In this document: piece after piece, positions 3,001 through 57,284 of the stretch
Layout of the letters: each line of letters begins with the position of its first letter
Position numbering within the stretch: the first letter of the stretch is position 1
IMG/VR virus record: IMGVR_UViG_3300028591_000004
Coordinates: 1 to 64,000 of that record
Direction: 5' to 3' (one strand)
Source of the DNA: a virus
Lineage: Duplodnaviria; Caudoviricetes
Length of the DNA: 64,000 nucleotides
Made by a program: the position numbers and the translations under genes
The notes under the pieces: model-generated
Databases searched by the model: none
Told to the model about the DNA's origin: nothing
What the model saw: only the letters and a program-made list of their open reading frames with translations

Positions 3001-4283
3001 AGGATCTCGCTTAGCTTCTGTTCATTTTCAATTAATGCTCTTGCAGCCGCTTCGCTTTGTTCATAAAGCACAGGCATGTTTTGCTGGTAAGATGCCATCC
3101 TTTGAAACAGGTTGTCCGACAACAATCCAACTTCCCGATAATAATCAAAACATAAAAGGAAAGGGAAGTAGTTTTTAACTTCAACACGTTCAGACGAAAG
3201 TTCATAACATTCTCCTGTCCTCGCTTTGTATACTGGATAAGCCTTACCTGTGGTTTTATTCCAGACGTAACTTCTCGACATAAAATCAAGATCGCTGTAA
3301 ACCAACTCAGAAGAGAACGTTAAATCGTCAGTCGTTGTAAAATAGTATGGGATATCATCTTTATCAAAAAATACAAGTTCTGTTCCAGCCCTGAAAGTTG
3401 CAGAATGAATATTATACTCATTGTGATAACAAACCTGAATAGAACACATACCGTTCTGATCACCGTAAGAACCGTATGCATATAACCGTGTAACCATTGT
3501 GTCGGTATTAACAGTTCTCGTAATGTTTTTCAGATTTTTATCATAATGAACTTCAAACACGTTTATATCTGAGTAGACTTCTTTGGGAATTTCTCCAGGT
3601 TCCAATTCTCGTGAAAAGGGATTCATGGGAACAATATCGACAACACGTCCTGTGACTTGCTCTCCATATTCGTTTGTATAAACACCTTCTCCGTGATAAA
3701 TCGGCTTTGCGTCAAACAACTCGCATAAGTTTTCGATTAGTCTGAACGCACCCGTATTTGAAGAGGCGTTAAGAGATCTCTTTTTTATTATTGTGTTATC
3801 ATAGTCTTCAACAAAGTTGGCAACTTCTCCAACGTGCCATCCTGTTCCCTTGAGGATTGTCGTGAGAATTTCTTTTGCGGTTCCGGTGTTATTGCTTTCT
3901 TCGTCTGAAAACTCTAAATCAAGCGCTTTAGATTTTAATAATTGCGCTATGTGTCCAGCCGTCACTTCAACTGTTTTCGCATTGGTATTATGTATGACTT
4001 TCTGTTCGGATATAATATACCAATCCGTTTCGTTTTCAGTTTGAAGTTTTATCTTATAGTCTGCAATCAAATACTGAATGCGAAAATTTTCTTCTTCTCC
4101 TTCATCGGTAATGCATGTTGAAGGAATACTGAAAGAAAGCTCCTTCCAGCCGTTGCGTTCAGTCTTGACATAGACATCTTTAGCCTGTCCGGAAACGTCA
4201 GATGTATTATCATACAGGTTACAGACTTTTCGATTTTCGTAATCGCAGATATCCAGACAAAGACTGCGCGAAGCCTTTAACAT
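1..4283 (-). CDS. Large tail-tip / baseplate hub (Tal-like) protein, >1427 aa, runs off the left end of the window
   Basis: ATG at 4283 with RBS AAGGTGGTG; begins MLKASRSLCLDICDYENRKVCNLYDN...RNGWKELSFSIP; same frame still open at positions 3-89; missing from the ORF track, consistent with no stop in the window; follows Dit. Confidence 0.8.
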   Translation of the reverse strand, partial: MLKASRSLCLDICDYENRKVCNLYDNTSDVSGQAKDVYVKTERNGWKELSFSIPSTCITDEGEEENFRIQYLIADYKIKLQTENETDWYIISEQKVIHNTNAKTVEVTAGHIAQLLKSKALDLEFSDEESNNTGTAKEILTTILKGTGWHVGEVANFVEDYDNTIIKKRSLNASSNTGAFRLIENLCELFDAKPIYHGEGVYTNEYGEQVTGRVVDIVPMNPFSRELEPGEIPKEVYSDINVFEVHYDKNLKNITRTVNTDTMVTRLYAYGSYGDQNGMCSIQVCYHNEYNIHSATFRAGTELVFFDKDDIPYYFTTTDDLTFSSELVYSDLDFMSRSYVWNKTTGKAYPVYKARTGECYELSSERVEVKNYFPFLLCFDYYREVGLLSDNLFQRMASYQQNMPVLYEQSEAAARALIENEQKLSEILESNTGMAKLAVKNYSSYAANEGDEPKLVLNLDTNQGDHGVLYRTDYDEAKRNYFSWHVAKELKDNGDPVSGIGSVVYIIHNTYPITWDIAYVKAIMKPDGSLYLNDSGNPKDYDYGLNDTDPAAIVLHMDKSDKQLKPGDRFYLFCSMSMSGKLSAKQVSDEAVLSSLQNETTVATEKHPTYFADERGPVPSTDSIQNTYGWYYKYYIMSNQEGELYFCYGARGETNWHRVFIGENAPYYRNDTYFFNIRTKALYFCSENEWTQMKTAEEQRIAIQFSKVIYYCNQRDMLYKGIFEKYIYHTTSKMPVGNYAFRSPYSFYWVFTTDEEIPQGFDLTLDTTKGYIWQNDSIEKVVSTKVVSYDSIDFPSDNELANTSVFPGLINALTGVEENSSEWFRTNNIKVYKDTVYQYDLPDDSYIVLYNIDKVYQRSMLATGSGSITITGDAYYARIVIHSELNDNHYFRVQDFEGTLYLSNKGYKIINSLRSEGELIGINPLMEKFADLADLTYGQNLNDLRNAQALIEAEDNSLTEELGDLLREGYWQEDQFVEGDEIRMYTDAMDNLQEISKPEITYEIGFLDLYGSNLDQHFSIDDMYETGWPDIQITDAVHLVDPDANINQWAYIDVIDKCYDQPWLTTLEINTKLSLIDQHDFTDVLTRIAEVAKETKGKQSVYKRAAALTSSGTLSSDLLEGNIKANKALILGGASNWWTDPKGNLIFEADDGSGAMMLTGRGILIADQRDSWGDWMFRTGLTGKGLTSDQVVTAFLSAKEALVGAITTDMIHASVGQELNIGSNAALMMYATVDGNRPAGGVKTGLHNVDGSYAEVGDDDSYIQIGSAETTSEGKNPAYINIMTGGLLNLYSGSDMNIKSGADLFIESEGHFEVKSGGDVLIASGGSIEISASEAGHFVVSSPNFNVNAKGDTDITGRITALTGEIAGMTVSFEELGGYVVRRYMYSGTDSMSSTEPGIYLGTDGVNLGGYLTVSKDGAQAKFGTNT

Positions 4284-8500: not shown

Positions 8501-11500
8501 GCAAGATAATTCTGTGCTCTAAGGCCTAACATAGTTGAAGCATGGGAAATAGGTTTATCTTCGTTCGCATGCTTGGTTTCAACAATATTAATCTTCTTTG
8601 AGTTGATTGCGTCAATCTCATTATCAATTTTAGCCATAGATTCTTTTGCGGAATCAATGGCTTCTGCGAGCTTATACCATTCTTCTGAACCAACTTTAAC
8701 CTTGCTTAACTGACTTTCAAGTGCGGCAATGTTAGCAGAATATTGATCTTTTAATCTTAATTGAGCTTCAATCTCATCGTTTAACGAATTAAGATAACCC
8801 TGATAGTTGTTGGTCGTTTCATACCTTGTCTGACGCTCTTGTGCCATTGTGACATCATGCTCACGACGTTTGATGTAATGGCTTTGTCCTTCGAGTAACG
8901 CGTCAGTCGCAGACTTTCCGTTATTGCCGCTGTTGCTAGGTCTTGTCGTAGGTCTGGAATAACTATTTCCGGGTCTTGCACTTATTCCAGACATGCCTAA
9001 CTGAGACAAGAAGGATTGGACATCTATGTGACCATCGCTTAATAAGGCCTGAATATCAACAGAAGCATAGGTTCCAAGCAAGGACATAATGACATCCAGA
9101 ACCCGTTTTTCTTCGTCTCCAAGTTTAGCCGCAAATTCAGAAAGCTCAAGCTGGCCCTCTGCGTTAACGTGGATTAAATCTCCGATCGGCATATTATAGG
9201 AGAATCCTTCGGTCCCTTCAAGGAAACTAAACAGAGAAGCAACGGTATCACTAAACTGCTGAGAGATGATAGGCTGAACCTGATTTAACAACTCATCCAG
9301 TTTTTCTTGAGACATATTGGCGAGTTGATCAGCATCATATGGAAGTAAACCAGCAAGAATATCCAGCGTTTGGTCTCCACGCTTTTTCATTCGATTCAGT
9401 TGCTTACCGGATTTTCCTCTGGCTCTATTGATTGCACCTTGCTGATCCTGGAGATCTTCCATCTGCTTCGTCAGCTTCATTTCAGCCTGTGCAGCATCTG
9501 TTCCGCCTTTGGCAAGGTCTGTTATCGTTTCAGATAATCCATCTACTCCCTTTGCGTATTTAGCAACATCCGCTGCCTTGCTTGCGGCCCAGTTGCTGTT
9601 TAACGCTTTGAGAGCGGCATTTGATCCATTAGCGGCTTGTTCAAGCTCTGGGAATTTAGAGATTATTTCATCGTAGAAACCTCTTAAATTCTCGTCGCCT
9701 TTCATTTTATCAAGAGTTTCACGTAATCCGATACTGTTAAACTGACCACTATGATAATTATTACCAAGAGATGCTTGAGCAATTAAATCATAATATTGAT
9801 AATCTTTGCCGGCCCCATTCATTTGAGCGGTCATAAACTGGTTGTAATCAGCCGAAGTTAATGTCCCGTTACTTAACAATCCCATGGCTGCAACAATACC
9901 GTTGTTGCTCATAACGGCGTTGGTCCAGTTGCTGTCCCAAACAGGATTACCATTTTCATCTTTTTGGTTCTGCACATAGTCCCAGAAATCACCATCGGCT
10001 TGTGGATTATAAGTATCGGCCATTCCCTGGAGCACTTGAGAACCTTTAAATTCATATGTGCTTTGTCTTAATCTGTCTCTTGCTTCCTGATATGCTTGAG
10101 AAAAATCCTGAGTGGCAGCGTTGGATGCGCCTTCAAGAGTGTCAGCATATTCATTGAGACGAGCAGCTGTTTCATCATCAGCTTTAGTAGCTGCTTCTCT
10201 TAACGTCTCAATAAGCGAATCAAAGTCAGTAGCTTCACTTAAATCAATTTCTTCAAGCTCATCAGTTGTTTTATCAATATCAACACCCTTTAAATCTTGT
10301 TCAATAACATCTTTTACATTAGAAAGAATTTCATCTCTTCTTTCGTTAATCATACCAAGAATAGATTCTTGTCCGCCAGATGTTTTCATCTGTTCAGAAA
10401 CATAATCTTGATCTAATCCAAGCAGAGATACAATATCGCCCTGTTTTGAAATCTCTTCAGGAGAAGTTGCCGCTATATTGGCTCGTTCAACGGAAGCAAG
10501 ATCGCTAAAGTATCCGCTTAATACCTGGCCTCTATCAGAACTGCGACCACTCGATAGTAATCTTACGTTGGTTGCTTTTTCCGCTGCGTTTCTGTCTCCG
10601 GCAAAATCTATACTGGCAAGCCACTCAGCATATTTTTCAGCAAAATCTTCAGGCAATTTACCTTCCGATAAAAACTTTTGTAAAGCAGATCCAGCGTCGC
10701 CCATATCGGAGAACATTGCGTCCCACATCTTTACAAGAGGGCTATCTTTACCGTTATTATCGATTTCAGATTGATATCTTGTTCTTATACCGTTAAGTGT
10801 TTCTTCGTCCCAATTTTGATTCGAAAAACCATTTTCACCAAACAGTTTTCTTGATGCAAATCCATATTTATCTGTAGCCTTACCGCCAAATAGAGCCGTA
10901 TTATATGCTGCTTGTAAATCTGTTTCTGTTACACCAGATCCTTCTTGCGAAGCGAGAGTTAACATATACCGTAAGTTTTCATCAATACCGGATAAATCCT
11001 GTGTCTTGTTATTTACAAGTAACGAGGCTCTCTGCCTTAATGTCAAATTTGCATAAGGACCATTCTCTGAGCCAAATATAGCCTGCCGTGCTGCTCCATA
11101 TGCTTTAGCATTTGTCTTGCTCTTTGCGTCAGCAGCCCTTTGGGCTTCGGCTAAACTCGTATAAAGATTTTGTGTTCCTTTATTTACCTGAGCTTCTCCA
11201 CTTTGAACAAAAATTCCAATAGTACGGATATAATTCGCCAGAGCGTCATTTGTTCCGTCGAAATATTTTGCAAGAGTTTCTGTGTCAACATCAGGTCCAA
11301 GTTCAGAGATGTCAACTGCACCGAGCATAAGCTTGAACGCTTCAACAAGAGTTGTATTAAGCTCATCCGACTGAGCAGTAATTGAAGCTTGCAGTGTGGC
11401 TTTTGCATCAGTAGAAGACTTGCCCCACATGGCTTTTATCTGATCCCTTGTATATCCGGTTACAGAAGTAAGTTCTTGAATAATAGTTTCATCTATCTCT

Positions 11501-32922: not shown

Positions 32923-34263
32923 TCACCGAGAAAGCAGAGAATAGGTAGTAGGTTTGTCATCCTTTTCCAGCAGGCTAAATCTGCCTTCGCTGCGGATGTC
33001 AGCCATAATAGGATTGATTTCTGCGGTAACTGTTTTTACTTCGGCGACAGCCTTTGCTTCTTTCAGTTCTGCGATTTCATTCCTGAGTGCTTCGACTTGT
33101 TCAGCTAATTCTGCAATTAACTGCTCGGCAGTCTGTTTCTTGGAATCGTCGACGGTCACAGGAGCCTCGTCAGTGTTCCCGGGCGGTGTAGTTTGTCCCT
33201 GATCCTCTTGATTGGGATCGTCTGTTGATCCAGACGCGGGTTCTTCCGATGCGCCGGATTCGCCGGAGTTTGCTCCATCTCCATCTCCGTTTTCAGCAAT
33301 ATGAACGCCGTCATCCGCTTCTACGATCTGCGCTTCCGGTTCGACATGAGATACAGATGTTTCAACTTCAACATGCTGATAAACGTCTACACCGGATTCA
33401 GTATCGTGAGCATAGGTAGAATGTTCTTGCTTAACTTCTTCGCGAACATAAACAGCGGCATTCTGCTGTTCAGCAGTTTCAGACGTTTTTTCGTCTTCAT
33501 CTTTGCATGCGGCAGATTCTTCGGTTTCAGCAATTTCTGCGTTTTCCTCAGGCTCTGTTTCAGCTTCCTGCTGAGTGGTTTCAGCCACAACGGGCTCTTC
33601 AGCCACGGTTGGCTCTTCAGTCGTAACGGGTTCTTCTGTAACCTGTTCGGCTAAGGTTTCCTTATTATCCGCCATATCCCTTTCACCTCCTTCTTCGTCA
33701 TCTGCTTTCTGCTGTGCGACTAACTGGAGCGCAACAGCTTCTTCGCAAGCAGGGAAGGTTACAATGGCAGTACCTTCCAGGTAATTACTGTCCGACGCGT
33801 CAATCTGTATCGTTCCGTCTTCGAGTTCTGTATACTCTCCAACGTTTACTTCGAAAGAAAATTTCAGGGCGCCGTCTGCAAAGAGTTCGGATATAGCTTT
33901 GCTAAGCTTTTTGTTTCGCTTGGCGATACGCGCATATCCAACTAAATAACAGCCGTTGTCGAAATCTTCCCGTTCGAAGTCGTAGAACGAACCGATTTGC
34001 GTAGAATGGAATTCGCCTGTTCGCGAGTCATACAGATGACCGAGTCGGCGATAATTGCCGTTTGTGAGGGCGCGGACGTCCGCATATAACGGCAGCCCTA
34101 CATACTGTTCTTTGTTATCGATGATTTCGTCGATGAAAGCTTCGGTAACTCTTGCTCCGTTTAGATTCGCCGCAGGAGCTTCGCAGATGCGGGCTTTTAC
34201 AGTCATAAAAATATCTGACTGCTGGATTTCGGAGATGACGGATGCGAACATAAGTCTGTTCAT
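32923..34263 (-). CDS. Prohead protease/scaffold protein
   Basis: N-terminal domain ending FSFEV...GTAIVTFPACEEA, followed by a long acidic low-complexity scaffold; between portal and capsid. Confidence 0.7.
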   Translation of the reverse strand: MNRLMFASVISEIQQSDIFMTVKARICEAPAANLNGARVTEAFIDEIIDNKEQYVGLPLYADVRALTNGNYRRLGHLYDSRTGEFHSTQIGSFYDFEREDFDNGCYLVGYARIAKRNKKLSKAISELFADGALKFSFEVNVGEYTELEDGTIQIDASDSNYLEGTAIVTFPACEEAVALQLVAQQKADDEEGGERDMADNKETLAEQVTEEPVTTEEPTVAEEPVVAETTQQEAETEPEENAEIAETEESAACKDEDEKTSETAEQQNAAVYVREEVKQEHSTYAHDTESGVDVYQHVEVETSVSHVEPEAQIVEADDGVHIAENGDGDGANSGESGASEEPASGSTDDPNQEDQGQTTPPGNTDEAPVTVDDSKKQTAEQLIAELAEQVEALRNEIAELKEAKAVAEVKTVTAEINPIMADIRSEGRFSLLEKDDKPTTYSLLSR

Positions 34264-47604: not shown

Positions 47605-47676
47605 AGTCGCGTCGCCAAGAGGCAAGGCAACGGACTTTGACTCCGTCATTCGCACGTTCGATTCGTGCCGCGACTG
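47605..47676 (+). tRNA. tRNA-Gln(TTG)
   Basis: AGTCGCG/CGCGACT acceptor, ACGGA-CTTTGAC-TCCGT anticodon arm, GTTCGATTC T loop. Confidence 0.92.
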
Positions 47677-48001
47677 CATTCGTACATGAGCGAACATAAC
47701 CTACTGACAGGCTGACATCCTACTGTCCGTGTTGTGTGTGCATAGTTACCTTGGGGCACGTTAAACAAGTGTCGAACAGTCCAGTCTGTTCGGACACCTC
47801 CTTTCTAAGTTTGCTAAGGGTCTTGTCAGTACTGTGAAGTTTCTCTCTTCTGCTCCGGATCTGACCGTTCGTGCGGCCAGCCCTCCGCACAGACAATTGG
47901 GATAGATGGGTTGTCTGCGGATGCGGATCTGCTCGGGAAGAGAATTAAACTTTATTCGGCCGCTGTTGAAGGGCGGCCGAAAGAAAAAAGGAGTGAGAAG
48001 C

Positions 48002-48172
48002 GTGACTGGTTTTGTCCCGTACAGCAAGATGAGTAAGAAACAGAAAAAAGAAAAGGACAGACAGAACCGCACTCTGTGGAATATGCCGTGTATAACTAAA
48101 GTAAAACCCAGTGGTAAAATATACAGCCGGAAAGATAAATCCATGACTGGAAATCCTTATTCCCTGTATTGA
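48002..48172 (+). CDS. Small basic hypothetical protein
   Basis: GTG start after AAGGAG; FVPYSKMSKKQKKEKDRQNR. Confidence 0.55.
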   Translation: MTGFVPYSKMSKKQKKEKDRQNRTLWNMPCITKVKPSGKIYSRKDKSMTGNPYSLY

Positions 48173-48249
48173 GGGTGCCGCCGAATACAAAAACTGAGAT
48201 TGTTCGCATTTGCGGCTGAAGGTTAGAGTTGAGATTCTCTTGCCGGAGA

Positions 48250-49030
48250 AGAATGACTGAGATAGGCCTATTATCTAAAGAATAATAAAATCCTCTATAG
48301 AACAATGTTTGAGAGTGGAAATTGTCTTGTAAAGAATACAATTCCAGAATGTAAGTACTGTTTCTCTCTCTATGATTGTTTGTTTTCATTTAAGTCTTTT
48401 GTTTTTATACGCTTCTTAACGGAGTATATCTCTTTATGGAGAGATATACTCCTAAAGCTAAAACAAAAGCCTTAAAGAAAACAAATTTCTAAAGAATGAT
48501 TTGGATTCTATCTCAAATAAACGAATTGCTAAAGAAATAACTGAATTTTCGATAGTAGAATTGATTCATTGAATTATCCTTCCGGAAACAAAAAGATTCT
48601 TCTATAGGAGAATCTATCTCCTATGATTGGATTTCTGAACAAAGAAAAAGATTCTATATAGCAGGATTAATCTTAATAAAGAGGATTCTATTAGAACAGA
48701 ACAGTTCTCTTTCTAATAAATCTCTCTCTTCTCTTTCTCTTTCTAATAAATCTCTCTTCTCTCTTTCTTCTTTCCTTTTTCATTTTGTCTCTCCTATAGA
48801 ATAATCCTTTTCTATAAAACAATTTCTTTTCTCTGTTATTGTCTTATAGAAAACAATCCCTTTCTATGAATTGGACTCTTTAAAAAGAAACGGTTCTCTA
48901 TAAAATGATCTTATCTCATATAGAACAATCTTTCTGAGAAAAAACAACTCTCTATAGAAGGATTGATTCTTTATAAAAAGAACTTCCTGAAGAAAGATTC
49001 TTTCTTTAATATATATATTATATATAGATA
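48250..49030. other. AT-rich non-coding region with recurring CTCTATAG / GATTCT motifs; candidate replication origin
   Basis: No credible ORF; duplicated TTCTCTTTCTAATAAATCTCTCT near 48705-48760; palindromes such as GGAGTATATCTC...GAGATATACTCC. Confidence 0.4.
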
Positions 49031-49044
49031 AGGGAAGTGAATAT

Positions 49045-49117
49045 GCCGGTATAGCTCAATTGGCAGAGCAGCTGATTTGTAATCAGCAGGTTTTCGGTTC
49101 GAGTCCGAATACCGGCT
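49045..49117 (+). tRNA. tRNA-Thr(TGT)
   Basis: GCCGGTA/TACCGGC acceptor; GCTGA-TTTGTAA-TCAGC. Confidence 0.95.
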
Positions 49118-49144
49118 CTTTTTTTTTATACAAGGAGGGATAGT

Positions 49145-49492
49145 ATGTATTGGACAATAGAAACACAGCCGGAAAATAAAGGCTTTTATTTGTGTACATG
49201 CGGAAATAATGTTGTAATGTTGTATTTCAACGGTAAGGAATGGATTGAAGGAGAAAATATTGTTTCGGATAAAGTTATTGCGTTTAGATCTTTACCGCAG
49301 CCTTATCAGCCAACAACAACGGACGCTATTTCCGACAAAATAGATATTCTTTCTTTACGTTTAAGCATCCTTAAGGATCTTTTACCTTACACGAATACAA
49401 ATCTCAACGATAAAATTGCGAATCTTTTAGACGATACAATTATGCATCTCGGTTCATACATCTCTATTGCAAAATACGAAAAAGAAAACTAA
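49145..49492 (+). CDS. DUF551-like phage protein
   Basis: W..ETQPENKGFYLCT...VIAFRSLPQPY pattern. Confidence 0.55.
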   Translation: MYWTIETQPENKGFYLCTCGNNVVMLYFNGKEWIEGENIVSDKVIAFRSLPQPYQPTTTDAISDKIDILSLRLSILKDLLPYTNTNLNDKIANLLDDTIMHLGSYISIAKYEKEN

Positions 49493-49505
49493 AGGAGAAA
49501 TACAA

Positions 49506-52170
49506 ATGCAACTGTTGCTTTCTACCGAAAACAGTGTTTACCGAATCGAAGTCAAGAAACCTACAAAACAGGAATTAGATAATATTACTCAGCCCGATTT
49601 CGAAGGACAAACCAGCCCCAAACAGGTTTATGTCGACAGACAGCTTCAGGAATTAGCCAGGGCGTTAACGCAAACCGGATACAGATACGATTGCTACGAA
49701 TAAGGAGAAAATGCTTTACACAGTTTATGTTTCAGCAACAATCGACAAAACAGTCGAAGTAGAAGCAGACGATCCGGTATACGCAATGTCCCTTGCAGAA
49801 GACAAAGTTTGTTCTATGTTAAGGGGAACTCCAGATGTTACAGCCGTAGAGGCATACGAATATACTGAGCGTGACTGACGGAAACACATTAGGCGTGACT
49901 GGCCGCAAAACATTGAAAGTGACTGAAAAATGAAAATCTACGTACTTGTTAAAAACATCGAAGCGGACATCGATTACAGTTGGGATTACACTCCTTACGA
50001 AATTATCGAAGCAAATACGTCTCGAGCACGACTGGAAGAGATAAAAAAAGAATACGAGAAACTAAACGGCGGGGAAGTATGGGAAGAATATTACGACAAC
50101 TTCACTTGCTGTTACACAATCGAAGAAGTAGAACTGAAAGGAGAAAGCCTACAATGAACTTTGAACAGCAGAATATTCCTGTAGACAGAGTTTACAGTCT
50201 CACACGACTGGTTTCAGCCTGCGAAAAGAACAATGTCGGTTTAGAGAATGTTGTTTTCTTTCAAAACGGTTTTCAGGTGTTGTTCGAAGACATGCCGGGA
50301 GATGCGGTTTTGCACGACTATTCCTACGGGAACAAGGCGTGTATGTGGGAAACAATAGGCTTTCCGTGGGATTGCTCCGACGTATCTGTTCACGAAGCAG
50401 AAACACTCGCAAAAATGCTCGGTGCTTTAAAGACCGGAAATGACTGGAAATTATTCGAGGAAGAATAAACATGAATGTTAAAGACCTGTACAGCCAAATT
50501 TTAGATCTTCTTCCAGACAGTCCTCCGGACAGCAGCGACTGGCACGGCTTCTGGGCTAATAAACACGATCAGGAAATCATGTGTGAGTCAGATACCCAGG
50601 CAGATGTGTTAGCCGATTTCTTCGAGGATTTAGGTTTCGATGTTATGCATACGCATCACTACAACTACGGTGAATGTGTTGTCAACGAGGATTGCTACGG
50701 CTGGTGGAGTGTTTATCCGGACTAAGGAGAGAAAATGAGATTTTACGTAACATACAAAATAAATGCAAGGTATGAGGCTCTTGTAGAGGCAAACACAGTC
50801 GAAGAAGCACGGGAGAAAGCAAAAGAAGAATATTGGGATGCGAACTTCGGTGAATGCCACGACATAGACGGTGATCAAATAAGTGTTGAGGATGAAAACG
50901 GTAATATTCTTTGGGAGAAGTAAATGCATAAAGCAATAAGAGCTGTTTTAAGGTCTATTATCAAGCACAAACGTATTTGTAAAATATTCGAACAATGGAA
51001 ATGGTTCAATCACTTGTGTTACGAAGAAGCACAGGCGGTGATCGGAAATCGACCTTGGAAGTAAGGAATTTTACGATGTGGGTAGATGCTAAAGCTGTAT
51101 GCTACGATCTTGCCGGAATGTGGGCAAGCCGAAAGAACAGAAGAAAATCCAGATGGAAACGTAAATTTGCAAGAATGGGAATTAAAATTTAGAAGCATAG
51201 AACTGGAGTTGATTCTTAATGTACGATCTAACAAAAGCAAATGCGGATATCAAACGCCCAAGAGAATGGAATATTCTAGCCTCTCGATTTGATGAATATT
51301 CAAAAGAAACTTTTGACAAAATAATGCAGTTAATTGAACTAATTAAACAAGAAGAATAAATGTTTTATTCAGAATGGGACCAAAAGAAATGCTGAAACGA
51401 GGTAAAATATGCTAAAATGGACAAACTGTTCTTCTCCAGATGGACATACATATTTAAAATGCAAAAGCTGTAAACAGGAATTTTATGTTGTTTCAGCCGC
51501 ATATTACAGTAAAACAATCAATTTCTGTCCTTACTGCGGAGACTACGCACATAGGATTAAAAACTTAAGAGGTAAAGAAGATGAAGACTTTGGAGATTTA
51601 CAAGCAGGATCTGACTCCGGAAGCCCAGGCGAGACTGGAAGAGTTTACGAATGGTGACGATAACTATGATGTCTTTCCTATTGCAACACTCGAAGTAGAA
51701 GAAGACGATCAAAGCGGATGATCCTGGAAGGAGATTTCAATGAGCATAAAAGATAAAATGGTTTTAAATCAATACGCTCAAAAAATATTCGGGTGTTTTT
51801 ACGACGATCTCTCGGAAAATGAGGCACAAATGCTTATCGGTTATGTTCATGAACACGATCCGGAATTTGAAAATCACAGAGGAATAATTCAATGACCAAA
51901 GCGGAACAGATTAATTTTGCACTTGTCAAAGTCAGCGAGATATTGAACATTATTCGTCCCAACGACTGGGCTGTCAAATATATTAAAGTCGAAGACGTAA
52001 ATTCCCTTGGACTGTCTGAATATCAAAAATCATATTACGGCATTGTTTCCGGAGAAGAATATTTCATGGTCTACATAAGCAATCAGCTGAGATATGTTGT
52101 GAATGTAACCGGTGACAATGTAATGACTTCACTTCAGGAATTAATTGACGTTCTTGCAAAGAAATTTTAA
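49506..52170 (+). other. Cluster of small hypothetical ORFs: 49506-49703, 49711-49878, 49930-50157, 50154-50468, 50471-50725, 50735-50923, 51409-51657 (Zn ribbon), 51892-52170
   Basis: Tightly packed plus-strand ORFs, most with AAGGAG-type RBS. Confidence 0.6.
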
Positions 52171-52338
52171 AGGAGATCGAACATGGTAAGTAACGCGTTG
52201 AGCTCAATAATTATGTTTACAGAAGCTGTGAGTTTAATCGGTCTCGTATGCACTGGTATCTGTTTAATTGTTTCGTACGCTGGTGAATTTATTGAAAAAT
52301 ACATTGAATGGTAAAACGTAAAGTCTGAAAGGAGAGGA

Positions 52339-53025
52339 GTGTACATGCTTTACGAGGTTGCCGGGAACCTGTTGACAAATGAAAAAATAAATATCTTTTG
52401 TCATCAGACAAACTGCAAGGGAAAGATGGGAGCCGGAATTGCAAAAGCAATAGCTGAAAAATACCCCATTGTTTCTCATGAAAACTATAAATATTGTTCA
52501 AGCATGGGCTACAGCAGGAACATTCTTGGGACAAATTTGTATGTGAAAGTTTCACCCCAAAGAACCTGTGTCAATATGTATGCTCAATACAATTACGGGA
52601 GATCTGGCATTTATACTGAATACGATAAGTTCCAGTCTTGTTTGGACAGATTAGCCGAGAAACTGAACAAATCCAGTCCTTCTTTCAATGTTGGGTTCCC
52701 AGCCGGAATCGGATGTGGAAGTGCCGGAGGAGACTGGAATTTTGTAAAGCCAATGATTGAATACTTTTCAACCGAGATTAAACAAAACGTATATCTTGTT
52801 TCGTACTCGGATGAAAGCAGGCATTTGTTTGATGTCACAGCCATGTTTATAGGCAACTCCATGTCTATCTCAAACGAATGGCATAGAATCAACATTCAGG
52901 TTTTACCCAAAAACTACCTTGTAAAGTGTGGGAACACCCAGAAATTCTACAGTTCGAAATCTTCATTGCTGAATGACTGGCACTGTATTGAGGAAATCGA
53001 ACTTCCGGATCTACCAATGCGTTAA
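52339..53025 (+). CDS. Macro-domain (ADP-ribose binding/hydrolase) protein
   Basis: GNLL..IFCHQTNCKGKMGAGIAKAI, VNMYAQ, FPAGIGCGSAGGDW. Confidence 0.85.
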   Translation: MYMLYEVAGNLLTNEKINIFCHQTNCKGKMGAGIAKAIAEKYPIVSHENYKYCSSMGYSRNILGTNLYVKVSPQRTCVNMYAQYNYGRSGIYTEYDKFQSCLDRLAEKLNKSSPSFNVGFPAGIGCGSAGGDWNFVKPMIEYFSTEIKQNVYLVSYSDESRHLFDVTAMFIGNSMSISNEWHRINIQVLPKNYLVKCGNTQKFYSSKSSLLNDWHCIEEIELPDLPMR

Positions 53026-53090
53026 TATATTTTAATCTTACTTAAGGTATAAGGCATAAGGTCATTCTTCATTCTGAAAGGAGCTTTCTT

Positions 53091-53279
53091 ATGCGTATAC
53101 ATGTGTACAAAGACAACGAGGATTTCTATATCGAGTTTAAAGACCCCCAAAATACAGAGCTCAAAGAAGAAAACGAACGATTAACTCCAGAAGAACTTTA
53201 TACAAATAAAAAACTGGAGATGCTTACAAGACTTTTAACAACTGGCTGTAAGTATAAATTGTTGTCCTGTACGCAGTGA
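53091..53279 (+). CDS. Small hypothetical protein
   Basis: RBS AAGGAG; weakly similar to 49506-49703. Confidence 0.55.
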   Translation: MRIHVYKDNEDFYIEFKDPQNTELKEENERLTPEELYTNKKLEMLTRLLTTGCKYKLLSCTQ

Positions 53280-53361
53280 AATCAGTTTCGCGAACTGTAA
53301 ATATAACGTCTGTTTGGGCGGCACGGGACAGCCGCCCGGACAGATTAAGAGGAGGATTAAA

Positions 53362-53622
53362 ATGAACAGGGGAATCCGCAGGAAGAACGATTACAATAAA
53401 GCGATCAGGAAGCAGAATATTGCACGTTTTGTTTACGGCTTTCAATGGTACGACAATCTTCACGAATACTCCAAAGGAAAAATTCATTGTTCCTGTCCTC
53501 TGTGCGCGGCCAAGACCAATCCGAAGCGTAAAAGGATTGGGCATGGATATACAATCAAAGACACCAAGAGAGTGAATGAAATGTCGTACGAGGAGGCGTA
53601 TATGTGTGAGGAAGAATTTTAA
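53362..53622 (+). CDS. Basic hypothetical protein with HCSCPLC motif
   Basis: RBS AGGAGG; KGKIHCSCPLC. Confidence 0.65.
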   Translation: MNRGIRRKNDYNKAIRKQNIARFVYGFQWYDNLHEYSKGKIHCSCPLCAAKTNPKRKRIGHGYTIKDTKRVNEMSYEEAYMCEEEF

Positions 53623-54028
53623 ACAGTTAATTCTTAAGTTTGGGGATAGCGGCCAGTTAATTCTTGATCCAGAGGATATTGAATATTTATCAGCTTGGAA
53701 TATTGTAAAGCATTTGATGTTGATTGACTGTTCAAAAGCGATTTACGAAAGAGATATTGCTAAGGATATTTGCTTAATTCTAAAAAAGTCTGCGAATAAA
53801 CAATTTGATTCTTTCGGCACAGTGTTTGAAAGACTTATGTATTCCAGAGACATTGTTACGCTGCGTTTTGTGTATGAAGACGAAACTCAGGAAATAGACG
53901 TCGACTGGAAAGATGAAAATGAATACGGGTCCGACAACAAAAGGCAGACATTTGCAATGAAAGGCGATAGTCTTTTAATTGCGATAGGAAAACTGAAAGC
54001 AAAAGATTATCTTAAAGGTTTCAATTAG
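53606..54028 (+). CDS. Hypothetical protein
   Basis: GTG start after AGGAGG. Confidence 0.55.
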   Translation: MRKNFKQLILKFGDSGQLILDPEDIEYLSAWNIVKHLMLIDCSKAIYERDIAKDICLILKKSANKQFDSFGTVFERLMYSRDIVTLRFVYEDETQEIDVDWKDENEYGSDNKRQTFAMKGDSLLIAIGKLKAKDYLKGFN

Positions 54029-54099
54029 GGGCATTAGTTTAACGGCTAAAACTTTCGCTTTGCACGCGAAGGATAAGGTTTCGACTACCTTATGCTCCA
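54028..54099 (+). tRNA. tRNA-Ala(TGC)
   Basis: GGGGCAT/ATGCTCC with G3:U70; TTCGC-TTTGCAC-GCGAA. Confidence 0.85.
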
Positions 54100-54302
54100 C
54101 ATCAGGAGAGAAATCTCCTGAATATGCGGTTGCGCATAAGCATTAATCCGGAGCTTGCCACTCCGGGCCGTCAATTTAATATTGACTGAAAGCGGTGCAA
54201 TGAGTTCAGTCAAAAATGTCGCACAACTCCATTTGCCAGCAATACAATTATTTGTATTATTGCAAACGCGACGTAGGCGGAAACAATTATGTTTCCGTTT
54301 AT

Positions 54303-54389
54303 GCGGATATGGCGGAATAGGCAGACGCCAGAGACTTAAAATCTCTTGCTCAATAGAGCGTGTGGGTTCAAGTCCCACTATCCGCACCA
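54303..54389 (+). tRNA. tRNA-Leu(TAA)
   Basis: GCGGATA/TATCCGC, CTTAAAA loop, long variable arm, encoded CCA. Confidence 0.95.
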
Positions 54390-54472
54390 GTCCCCCAAAA
54401 GGGGACCGATTTCTGGCAACCGGGAAAGACCGGCATACTAACGGTTGATTGGCACTCTGGAAAGACAGAGAT

Positions 54473-54567
54473 TTGCAGGTGACGGAATAGGTAGACGTGA
54501 AAGGCAATAACATAGTGCCGGGGACGCCACTGTGTGCTATGTGAGGTGCAAATCCTCACCCTGTATC
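54473..54567 (+). ncRNA. tRNA-like RNA with atypical anticodon arm
   Basis: Leu-type D arm ACGGAATAGGTAGACGT, T arm GTGAGG-TGCAAAT-CCTCAC, TGCAGG/CCTGTA acceptor; no 7-nt anticodon loop. Confidence 0.5.
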
Positions 54568-54570
54568 TAT

Positions 54571-54655
54571 GCAGCGATGGCCGAGAGGCTTAAGGCATCT
54601 GTCTTGAAAACAGAAGAGTGTAAAAGCTCCGTGGGTTCAAATCCTACTCGCTGCG
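54571..54655 (+). tRNA. tRNA-Ser(TGA)
   Basis: GCAGCGA/TCGCTGC, TCTGT-CTTGAAA-ACAGA, long variable arm. Confidence 0.92.
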
Positions 54656-54661
54656 TTTTAT

Positions 54662-54739
54662 GCTCCACTAGCTAAGTTGGTTGTAGCGACGGCCTTATAA
54701 GCCGTGTCATTAAGCTGGGTTCGAGCCCCAGGTGGAGTA
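54662..54739 (+). tRNA. tRNA-Ile(TAT)
   Basis: GCTCCAC/GTGGAGT, ACGGC-CTTATAA-GCCGT, CTGGG-TTCGAGC-CCCAG. Confidence 0.8.
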
Positions 54740-54763
54740 CTATTTTTTTTAAAGGAGATTGAT

Positions 54764-54952
54764 ATGCACTTTTTCAAACAAAACTGTGATCCTGCTATTT
54801 ATTTTAACGGGAAAGCCTATCCAACCAGTGTTTATATGCAAGCCTATAACGAAGCCATGCATGATAAACAGCTTGAAAAAGAAATTGACGCTCTGGAAAA
54901 GAAATACATTCAACTGCATTTAGACGTGCTGATGAATGAACAAACCAATTAA
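54764..54952 (+). CDS. Small hypothetical protein
   Basis: RBS AAGGAG. Confidence 0.55.
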   Translation: MHFFKQNCDPAIYFNGKAYPTSVYMQAYNEAMHDKQLEKEIDALEKKYIQLHLDVLMNEQTN

Positions 54953-54978
54953 AACTATTTATTAAAGGAGACTGAACA

Positions 54979-55758
54979 ATGGCAAAGAAACTCGTAGCAG
55001 AAGTAACTAACAACGAAGGCGAACAGCAGGAAGTACAGTTCAATGAACAGACGGCGTCCGTGAGAGTAGAAATCAAGCGGGTCCCTGTAGAGAAAGCGCG
55101 TATCAAAATTGTCGGAGACTCTCCTTTGCTGGTCCATGCGTGGAGTGAGAAAGTCAAGAAAGAACTGCTTGCGAATATGCAGATGGACAAGCGGGAGAAA
55201 AAGCAGAAGACCCACGAAAAGAAAGACCCGTTTGCGGACTTTGTCGAAGCTGCTTATTGGATTACTCCGATGCCTGATGTTCGGGGTCTTGAACCCGAGA
55301 AGCAGATTGAACTGTTCGAAAAAGCAATCGACGACGGCGCCCAGTTTGGTTTCCCAGTTATTGCGTTTAAGAAGGCCGCTATTGCTGCCTGCTTGAGTTC
55401 TGGCTTGATTAAAAGTGTGTCTCTGATGCGGCGGTTGTTCCATGTCAATGCTGTGAATGGAGCTCATGTTAAGTCTTCTCAGGAGCTGGCCATTCTGAAG
55501 ATTGAAGAGCCTCCGGAACTGTCTGAAGACGTTGTTAAGGTTGGTCCTTTCAACAATCGTCAGCCAGACCTGAGATATCGCCCTTCTTTCAGGAAGTGGA
55601 GTACAGAACTGGAACTGAGCCTGATTAAAACCGGAATGTTTACGATGGAAGATATTGTTAATGCTATTGATATGGGTGGTTTTATGAACGGCGTTGGAGA
55701 ATGGCGAACCGAAAAAGACGGTGAATTCGGCAATTATCATGTCGAGATTACAGATTAA
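54979..55758 (+). CDS. Cas7/RAMP-like putative RNA-binding protein
   Basis: IKIVGDSPLLVH (RAMP beta1-like), FGFPVIAFKKA (IPxxxxKG-like), C-terminal Gly-rich loop GGFMNGVGEWRTEKDGEFGNYHV. Confidence 0.65.
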   Translation: MAKKLVAEVTNNEGEQQEVQFNEQTASVRVEIKRVPVEKARIKIVGDSPLLVHAWSEKVKKELLANMQMDKREKKQKTHEKKDPFADFVEAAYWITPMPDVRGLEPEKQIELFEKAIDDGAQFGFPVIAFKKAAIAACLSSGLIKSVSLMRRLFHVNAVNGAHVKSSQELAILKIEEPPELSEDVVKVGPFNNRQPDLRYRPSFRKWSTELELSLIKTGMFTMEDIVNAIDMGGFMNGVGEWRTEKDGEFGNYHVEITD

Positions 55759-55769
55759 GGAGGACTTTG

Positions 55770-56294
55770 ATGGCCGCATTTGAATATCGGTTTAAAATGC
55801 CCAAGATGCATAAGGTTTCCGCGGATGTTGCTGGTAAGATTTGTCAGGAGTTGTCTGATTCAGAAGACGGTTTGACTCCCAAGCGACTGGTCGATGTAAG
55901 TCGTAATAAGAACGCTCCTCTTCACGATGAATTTGAATGGGACGACTCCATTGCCGGAGAAAAATATCGTGAGCAGCAAGCTCAGACACTGATCCAGCAT
56001 TTGGTTATTGTTCAAACGGACAATGAGGCTGAAAGGATCGTCAAGCTTACAAAGCAAAACAAAGACTCAGAAGATGCTGAAGTAAAAGATTATCCGGCAG
56101 ATCGTGGATTTGTTTCTACCGGGGAGCATAACACTCGATATGTTCCTCTTGCTTCGGCTTTAACTAATGATTTATGGAGAGCCAGCTTGCTGGAGTCTGC
56201 ACGAAAGGACAGTAGAATTTTTGTGTCTAAGTACAACAGGTTGGAAGAGCTGGCTGAGATTGTCGACGATATGAACAGATTCCTTGGTGCCTGA
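55770..56294 (+). CDS. Hypothetical partner protein of the RAMP-like gene
   Basis: GLTPKRLVDVSRNKNAPLHDEFEWDDSIAGEKYREQQA; between RAMP-like gene and array. Confidence 0.75.
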   Translation: MAAFEYRFKMPKMHKVSADVAGKICQELSDSEDGLTPKRLVDVSRNKNAPLHDEFEWDDSIAGEKYREQQAQTLIQHLVIVQTDNEAERIVKLTKQNKDSEDAEVKDYPADRGFVSTGEHNTRYVPLASALTNDLWRASLLESARKDSRIFVSKYNRLEELAEIVDDMNRFLGA

Positions 56295-56350
56295 AAGTAA
56301 GGAGACACTATAAGATCTCCCGGAGTGGATGAAAGGTCTGAACATGGTCA

Positions 56351-56773
56351 GGCAGCCATGGCGAGTACGGGTCAGTTGTTTTCGGGTAAGCAATGTCAAG
56401 GCAGCCGAGGTGAATTTTGTAAAGGTACGGTGCGCACGGGCAGCCATGTTCTGTTGAGTTGAGCTCTGCCGATGCACGTTAAGTTAAGTTGTGGCAGCCT
56501 AGGATGGGTATTGCACGTTTTGTTCCGCATCGGAGTGGCAGCCACGGTAAGTTCCGTTGGGTTTGTTGCGTGGTGAAGTGCGGCAGCCATGGTGTGTACC
56601 GGAGCTATTGGGAGTGCAAAGGTTTGGCAGCCTTGGTCAGTTGCGTAGTGTTACGGACGTGTATGTTAAGTTTCGGAACGGCAGCCTAGGTATGTACAGG
56701 TCTGTATGGGTCTCGTGCGAAATGGCAGCCAAGGACAGGAGCGTAATGTATAGTCCGCATGGGACGGGCAGCC
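56351..56773 (+). repeat. Non-coding array: 10 GGCAGCC motifs separating 9 units of 5-nt modules (candidate guide-RNA array)
   Basis: GGCAGCC at 56351, 56400, 56439, 56493, 56537, 56582, 56626, 56680, 56724, 56767; spacings 49, 39, 54, 44, 45, 44, 54, 44, 43. Confidence 0.9.
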
Positions 56774-56921
56774 GATATAAAATTGTCCGTGCAATGTCAC
56801 AGCCAATCCAATTCGCGATGGGGAGACGCGATCAACAAATATCTCCCTGCTTTTATTAAACGAATAGTGAATTCACCAGTCCCGCCGCAAGCGGCTGGAG
56901 ATAAAGAGAAAGGAGCCGCAG

Positions 56922-57284
56922 ATGCAACTCATCCGACTTAATCTCGACGGGACAACCGAATTAATACCATTCAACCCAAAAGATTCATTTTCCCAAATCA
57001 TCGAATGCGAATACATCGAAATAGTTCGACCAAGAAACTGCAAGCATTCGCTCATCGTAGACGAAGAGGGAAGGTTGAAAGAAAACAAAATAAACATTTT
57101 AGCGTCATATCTTTACGGCACACATTTTCATTATCAGCCTATTATGGGAACAGTGCTTGTTTGTGATATTACGCCATACGGAGAAATAACCGGACTAACT
57201 GATGATTCTGCGATTGAATTTAAAAAGAAACTAGATGACATATATTTGTTTGCGTTTAACATGATAAAGAACGCACTTGAATGA
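56922..57284 (+). CDS. DUF3846-like protein
   Basis: IECEYIEIV...LIVDEEGRLKENKINILASYLY..PIMGTVLV. Confidence 0.7.
   Translation: MQLIRLNLDGTTELIPFNPKDSFSQIIECEYIEIVRPRNCKHSLIVDEEGRLKENKINILASYLYGTHFHYQPIMGTVLVCDITPYGEITGLTDDSAIEFKKKLDDIYLFAFNMIKNALE

Follow-up and report, generated by a model that had tools for sequence, protein, structure and literature searches.

Systems termed Viral Interference Programmable Repeat (VIPR) have been described in a series of preprints (bioRxiv 10.64898/2026.04.26.720920, 10.64898/2026.04.26.720927 and 10.64898/2026.10.15.759431). They represent a newly described way for RNA to read DNA, in which a Cas7-like filament reads two bases and skips one, and they have been proposed as an ancestor of CRISPR effectors. 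In the SUSP1 system, cryo-electron microscopy (cryo-EM) showed that residues H17, R138, D177, W178 and R179 of the filament protein, Vipr, hold the two guanines of the repeat and the pyrimidine pocket (10.64898/2026.04.26.720927). According to the VIPR preprint, SUSP1 units are about 100 nucleotides (nt) long and comprise 9–16 GGYNN repeats (Y, pyrimidine; N, any base) with a pseudoknot tail at the 3' end. That preprint (10.64898/2026.04.26.720920), which distinguishes VIPR types I–VII, further describes six families of accessory vap genes, several of them predicted DNA binders, as well as staggered arrays, in which guide RNAs (vrRNAs) arise from positions overlapping by 1 nt (fig. S18). Variants that depart from GGY, namely NNNGG, YNNNG, NNNNG, WGT/NN and TGH/NN, appear in the same preprint and in section 2.3 and fig. 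S10 of 10.64898/2026.10.21.760802. Here we compare with these systems a locus found in virus record IMGVR_UViG_3300028591_000004, a complete genome of 150,780 bp with direct terminal repeats, whose first 64 kb (64,000 nt) are hereafter called the window. On the + strand the locus reads vipr, vap, leader and vrRNA array. We put the probability at roughly 0.88 that it is a VIPR locus of this 150.8-kb tailed phage which, by homology with SUSP1, would silence its targets by means of Vipr filaments on guide RNAs.

The original prediction, made from the letters of the window, had proposed a candidate non-CRISPR, Cas7-like, RNA-guided system, with one subunit on each 5-nt module, a gapped target spelled out by NN and guides bounded by GGCAGCC, and had noted a resemblance to VIPR. 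The resemblance held, VIPR being a published family and the filament protein being homologous to SUSP1 Vipr. The assignment to a non-CRISPR, Cas7-like, RNA-guided type is likewise supported by homology, fold and the arrays of relatives. Because of that homology and the published family, the label of a candidate new system is superseded: the locus belongs to a described family and constitutes a rediscovery.

Judged by sequence, the 259-aa product of the first gene is a homologue of SUSP1 Vipr over nearly its whole length. The profile–profile alignment (hhalign) gave 98.6% probability and an E value of 7.5e-16 over 185 columns, nearly end to end. A profile built from 39 homologues matched PDB chain 36pp_D ('SUSP1 Vipr protein') with E 5.6e-10, and the single sequence matched 36pp with E 3.8e-5. 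A Pfam search of the protein returned no match, Nop included, and PHROGs places it in a family without assigned function. The family is nonetheless large, with 2,071 clusters (50% identity) at E <= 1e-3 and at least 575 loci in IMG/VR. Structure prediction followed by a Foldseek search, a check that the original prediction had proposed, supports a Cas7/Csm3-like fold with a predicted RRM core, G-loop and thumb: the AlphaFold (AF2) model has a confidence (pLDDT) of 86.6, its top Foldseek matches are all Cas7/Csm3 family chains, and VIA-align against Csm3 gave Z 10.3 over 157 residues. The RNA-contacting positions point the same way. In the hhalign alignment the five SUSP1 residues named above correspond to H53, R201, E241, W242 and R243, four being identical and the fifth (D177) replaced by E, and all five are invariant or nearly so among the 39 homologues; the equivalent of SUSP1 K33 falls in a low-confidence stretch of the alignment and is not resolvable. 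The RAMP/Cas7-like motifs already picked out in the sequence (VGDSPLLVHAW, GFPVIAFKKA and GVGEWR) are present and (nearly) invariant in the family as well.

Downstream of the two genes lies an array in which ten GGCAGCC junctions bound nine guide units (Table 1). Open reading frames (ORFs) of 259 and 175 aa and ten copies of this heptamer had been reported from the letters; both frames were found, the second encoding 174 aa from ATG and 175 from TTG, and the ten copies were recovered at 56351–56773 with the same spacings of 49, 39, 54, 44, 45, 44, 54, 44 and 43 nt. Outside the array the heptamer occurs once in the 64 kb (at 34091); shuffles give 3.6 +/- 2.1 copies per window. The spacings, to which a rule of 9+5n had been fitted, are better read as whole pentamers whose junctions overlap by 1 nt. 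Each unit runs from a GCC-NN pentamer at its start to a GGC-AG pentamer at its end and comprises 8–11 whole pentamers. At the DNA level the junction GGCA-G-CCNN reads as two pentamers sharing a G, and since neighboring units share this one G, spacings are of the form 5n-1, as seen in seven of the nine units. Internal triplets of these seven in-register units begin with G in 46 of 53 cases, exactly the count of the original prediction, with G23/T22 at position 2 and T31/A17/C5/G0 at position 3. In other words, K (G or T) occupies position 2 in 45/53 and H (A, C or T) occupies position 3 in 53/53, while positions 4–5 are near uniform. Several pentamers do not have the leading G.

Autocorrelation of G at a lag of 5 nt reaches 0.28, against 0.00 +/- 0.05 in 2000 shuffles (maximum 0.15), and nowhere else in the 150,780-bp genome, whichever strand is taken, is a 5-nt period as strong. 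At lags of 3 and 6 nt the values are below zero, which excludes a coding periodicity as the source. A protein-coding repeat was rejected on these grounds and because unit lengths of 5n-1 are incompatible with it, in keeping with the non-coding nature originally proposed. We therefore regard the array as a real, non-random feature that does not code for protein. A structured RNA was also considered and rejected, the array folding no better than shuffles (z +0.64), and an Rfam search of the array returned no family at E <= 1, hence no known RNA family or ribozyme-interspersed array. An unstructured RNA suits a protein-coated single strand. Downstream of the array, a hairpin followed by a U-rich run may, according to the predicted fold, terminate the array transcript; a consensus scan missed it because its loop is 15 nt long. 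No sigma-70-like promoter was recognised at the locus, and the array may be co-transcribed with vipr and vap or driven from the conserved leader.

Table 1. Coordinates of the features discussed. Positions refer to the window unless another sequence is named.
Feature	Position	Strand	Basis or remark
vipr, 259-aa RAMP/Cas7-like protein, predicted guide-RNA-coating subunit	54979..55758	+	homology and fold
vap, 174-aa conserved accessory protein	55770..56294	+	175 aa from alternative TTG start at 55767
Conserved leader, vap stop codon to first junction, 56 nt	56295..56350	+	low divergence from L082
Staggered vrRNA array, 10 GGCAGCC junctions bounding 9 guide units	56351..56773	+	repeats, 5-nt periodicity
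Unit 1, 10 pentamers, 9 variable NN	56355..56404	+	pentamer parse
Unit 2, 8 pentamers	56404..56443	+	pentamer parse
Unit 3, 11 pentamers	56443..56497	+	pentamer parse
Unit 4, 9 pentamers	56497..56541	+	pentamer parse
Unit 5, irregular, 46 nt with one extra base	56541..56586	+	irregular unit also in L082/L083
Unit 6, 9 pentamers	56586..56630	+	pentamer parse
Unit 7, 11 pentamers	56630..56684	+	three NN positions differ from the L082 copy
Unit 8, 9 pentamers	56684..56728	+	pentamer parse
Unit 9, damaged, 43 nt	56728..56771	+	11-nt deletion relative to intact 11-pentamer unit in L082/L083
Hairpin then U-rich run, possible terminator	56820..56857	+	7-bp stem in centroid fold
Serine recombinase, 256 aa, provirus fragment L150 (G006)	gene 9793-10602; guide 1 site 9949-9974		
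Genes upstream of vipr in two relatives	L084 1021-1617; L085 1812-2087		

We then considered the array in its relatives, using 80 related viral loci from IMG/VR. In 77 of them 5-periodicity is strongest in a window on the strand of vipr and no more than about 2.4 kb downstream of it, which bears out the expectation that homologues would carry a 5-periodic array downstream. Of the other three loci, one has its array on the opposite strand, one gives a weak signal and one is truncated. On contig L035, at about position 3760, C rather than G carries the strongest 5-periodic signal downstream of vipr, the array apparently lying on the opposite strand. About 23 loci retain the GGCAG[CT]C junction, with 109 of 126 spacings equal to 4 mod 5, and relatives with canonical GGYNN repeats show the same junction, written GGCA-G-GCNN. 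Across the clade (1,044 pentamers from 119 unique units) the pentamer reads G.89 / G.64 T.28 / T.45 C.31 A.24 G.01 / N / N, and its G-K-H triplet is a relaxed form of GGY. Relatives found in bacterial genomes come mostly from Firmicutes metagenome-assembled genomes of gut and rumen, with some from Bacteroidales, Alphaproteobacteria and Actinobacteria.

The second gene is conserved as well. A Vap homologue adjoins vipr in 76 of the 80 loci, in the order vipr-vap-array or vipr-array-vap. Vap belongs to PHROG 15946, a family of unknown function, and searches for it yielded no Pfam match, no PDB sequence match and no Foldseek match. Its AF2 model (pLDDT 88) ends in a helical hairpin, and residues from about 6 to 128 are weakly winged-helix-like (VIA Z 4.6–5.9, below the noise bar of the tool). 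This resemblance is one of the observations favoring a role of the array as DNA, in which the ten directly repeated GGCAGCC copies, with their G-phased filler, would serve replication, partition or packaging, either as iterons or as sites for a protein, possibly Vap, and an RNA-binding role of Vipr would be unrelated to them; that the array RNA shows no structure beyond shuffles and that no promoter was recognised are compatible with the same idea. We consider it very unlikely. The pentamer-repeat RNAs of the homologous SUSP1 Vipr have been sequenced, co-purified and seen by cryo-EM, and the RNA-contacting residues are conserved in the Vipr described here. In addition, strand co-orientation with vipr in nearly all loci and hypervariable NN beside a fixed G fit guide RNA rather than an iteron, and Vap is found on either side of the array.

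Selection on the locus was gauged from near-identical relatives. Contigs L082 and L083 show 92% DNA identity to the window across vipr and vap with no gaps, their proteins being 97–99% identical. Codons that differ from such a 92%-identical relative number 64 (synonymous) against 3 (nonsynonymous) in Vipr and 29 against 4 in Vap, and both proteins are under strong purifying selection. The leader is more conserved still. Positions 56295–56361 (67 nt, from the vap stop codon through the first junction) differ from L082 at 2 sites, as compared to 6–9% of bases in the flanking genes, and the leader is more conserved than the synonymous sites of those genes; a conserved block can still be made out in relatives whose Vipr is only 59% identical. 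Possible roles of the leader are those of promoter, processing signal, 5' end or protein-binding site. A short hairpin is located in the leader directly after the vap stop codon. The locus might otherwise be taken for a decaying or inert remnant, in which Vipr is kept for another role while the array drifts. Such decay would explain why units 5 and 9 are out of register, the latter with an 11-nt deletion, and why the leading G is missing here and there. We find this extremely unlikely given the selection acting on both genes, the conserved leader and the number of units kept in register; internal degeneracy of vrRNAs is moreover called common in the VIPR preprint.

Guide cassettes turn over between near-identical phages. 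L082 shares five distal units with the window, with point changes, whereas the four proximal units of the window, adjoining the conserved leader, are replaced by two unrelated ones. A second pair of contigs, L007 and L008, also keeps the distal five units, but unit 1 is common to both as well, so the polarity of turnover is suggestive only; these observations hint at polarised cassette turnover in VIPR arrays. It is rather unlikely, in our estimate, that the clade forms a distinct VIPR subtype, defined by tail-less guides of 8–11 pentamers, a shared G, the G-K-H triplet and a Vap of its own, whose arrays are renewed by active, polarised cassette acquisition. Should guides be taken up next to the leader by an enzyme-driven process, VIPR would possess a stage akin to adaptation, with a bearing on the proposed transition from VIPR to CRISPR.

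Taken together, the locus displays the features by which VIPR can be recognised in silico, that is Vipr homology, RNA-contact residues, at least four tandem pentamers, linkage of the array to vipr and a conserved partner gene without cas genes, and at the DNA level the 1-nt overlap of staggered arrays. By homology with SUSP1, the + strand of the array would be transcribed, and each GGCA-G-CC junction would be cut at its shared G or close to it, releasing nine tail-less guides of 8–11 pentamers. One Vipr protomer would bind each pentamer, sequestering the G-K-H triplet and presenting the two variable bases, such that the NN of each unit would provide 14–20 variable bases for reading. The resulting filament would read double-stranded DNA as NNx NNx, skipping each third base, typically the codon wobble position, and would silence transcription of a competing mobile element such as a satellite, a prophage or a rival phage; Vap would interact with DNA as a partner that is needed for silencing or enhances it. 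By analogy with the described systems we infer that the array is transcribed, where it is processed, that 1 nt is skipped in this clade, what Vap does and what is targeted.

Several points weigh against this reading. Two units in nine do not keep the register, and in 10.64898/2026.04.26.720920 staggered arrays are not among the architectures confirmed by small-RNA sequencing. Position 2 is often T and position 3 often A, whereas the SUSP1 pocket excludes purines at the latter, so that details of binding must differ here. No similarity was found between Vap and SUSP1 Vap1 by hhalign. Target searches also count against it. Four guides of 20 nt (units 7 and 3 of the window and two units of L082), scanned for exact NNx matches, gave 0 in IMG/VR, and units 7 and 3 likewise gave 0 in JGI metagenomes. 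Guide 1 (18 nt) had 3 exact NNx matches in IMG/VR versus 1 for its reversed control, which is chance level. Finally, a 1-nt skip performed no better than skips of 0, 2 or 3 in local tests with small target sets.

The last of these results is also what one would expect if the locus were a VIPR-family system with another reading rule or substrate, be it a different skip, an RNA target or regulation of the phage's own or host genes. A triplet of G-K-H rather than GGY, a Vap unrelated to Vap1 and the lack of a target under the 1-nt skip fit such a scheme too. It seems quite unlikely to us, as conservation extends to the thumb arginine and to those residues by which the repeat is fixed, and since local target sets were small, failed target matches say little. 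Own-gene regulation in particular was rejected: no guide matched the phage's own 150 kb above shuffled guides at skips 0–3, and the VIPR preprint (10.64898/2026.04.26.720920) likewise reports no self-targeting. Likewise, 101 guides of relatives compared with this phage gave nothing above skip controls, and guide 7, even with as many as 3 mismatches allowed, matched nowhere in the genomes of five large related phages. A weak hint at wobble-aligned coding targets, and thereby at the standard rule, comes from NN composition, in which position 4 is poor in C and position 5 is poor in G, resembling codon positions 1 and 2 of the phage's genes.

One of the guide 1 matches deserves mention as it lies in a provirus serine-recombinase gene (Table 1). 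All 18/18 read bases match, the site is in frame and every skipped base falls on a wobble position. The site encodes IDRQVRNIK, directly after the catalytic Ser motif, and guide 1 matches at >= 16/18, that is at least 16 read bases, in 64 of 69 homologous recombinase loci in IMG/VR despite heavy wobble variation. Among the other guides none converges on the recombinase proviruses, so the serine recombinase is a candidate target only, and a tentative one: possible rather than probable. The proviruses seem to come from different samples than the nearest relatives of the window, if we take the series of IMG sample numbers as a guide. Provirus fragment L150 also carries a gene similar to G000 69875-70288. 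The match appears to echo a published target, since SUSP1 vrRNA4 silences a satellite serine recombinase at its catalytic core in wobble-aligned fashion (October 2026 VIPR preprint).

Finally, we examined the surroundings of the locus. Six phage tRNA genes (Gln, Thr, Ala, Leu, Ser and Ile-UAU) are located directly upstream of the VIPR operon, at 47605–54740 of the window. Between tRNA-Ile and vipr, a 62-aa ORF in the same orientation (54764–54952) shows 5 synonymous versus 8 nonsynonymous differences from a 92%-identical relative, a ratio that points either to rapid evolution or to a frame that is no gene. Antisense to the entire vipr gene runs an open frame of 274 aa (54955–55779, - strand), which is probably a by-product of codon composition. 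Immediately 3' of the array, a DUF3846 protein (PF12957, E 7.5e-12; PHROG 3777) is encoded at 56922–57284. In relatives at 83–86% Vipr identity the gene just 5' of vipr differs: one relative has a gene for a YAcAr-domain protein there, another a gene for a Lar restriction-alleviation-like protein, and the VIPR module occupies a variable, anti-defence-like neighborhood. No Cas1 was found in the whole 150-kb genome, extending what had been noted for the window, and no CRISPR repeats or other cas genes were found.

The VIPR concept is unchanged by this locus, which is of value as a well-delimited natural example that combines compact, tail-less, self-delimiting guides, a relaxed code and an accessory protein unrelated to Vap1. 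Its repeat code accepts T at position 2 as well as A at position 3. Such features may help in designing minimal guides and in finding the pocket residues of Vipr that set repeat specificity. With hundreds of related loci in IMG/VR, the clade is common in animal-gut viromes.

Among known systems, TIGR-Tas resembles the locus in being a non-CRISPR system with array-encoded guides. Tas effectors carry a Nop domain, and the system has an 18-nt period and effectors such as FpTasA, as opposed to the 5-nt period and RAMP protein found here. The resemblance to class 1 CRISPR-Cas is structural: Cas7 polymerises along its guide with a fixed step, and Csm3, Cmr4 and the Cas7 of type VII share the predicted RRM core, G-loop and thumb (Z up to 10.3). 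Identity is about 10–12%, however, and the CRISPR step is 6 nt with 5 read, versus 5 nt with 2 read in the present locus. Class 1 CRISPR-Cas has repeats of roughly 23–50 nt between unique spacers and a cas1/cas2 adaptation module; the sole repeat of the phage-encoded array is a 7-nt junction, its spacers are internally 5-periodic and no Cas1 was found. The closest counterparts are VIPR systems. With the type II VIPR of SUSP1/Pseudomonas fulva the locus shares the H, R and (D/E)WR residues of Vipr, the gene order, the pentamers, a phage-borne location and the lack of cas genes. Identity between the two Vipr proteins is about 26%, and the one described here is 57 aa longer. SUSP1 units (contig L220) carry a long conserved tail after the repeats, whereas the guides in our array are tail-less, consist of 8–11 pentamers, overlap by 1 nt and use the G-K-H triplet, and its Vap is unrelated to Vap1. 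Staggered VIPR arrays are alike in that neighboring guides share one nucleotide (5n-1) and that the fixed part of the pentamer is degenerate. Overall, the differences from type II systems fall within the published diversity of VIPR.

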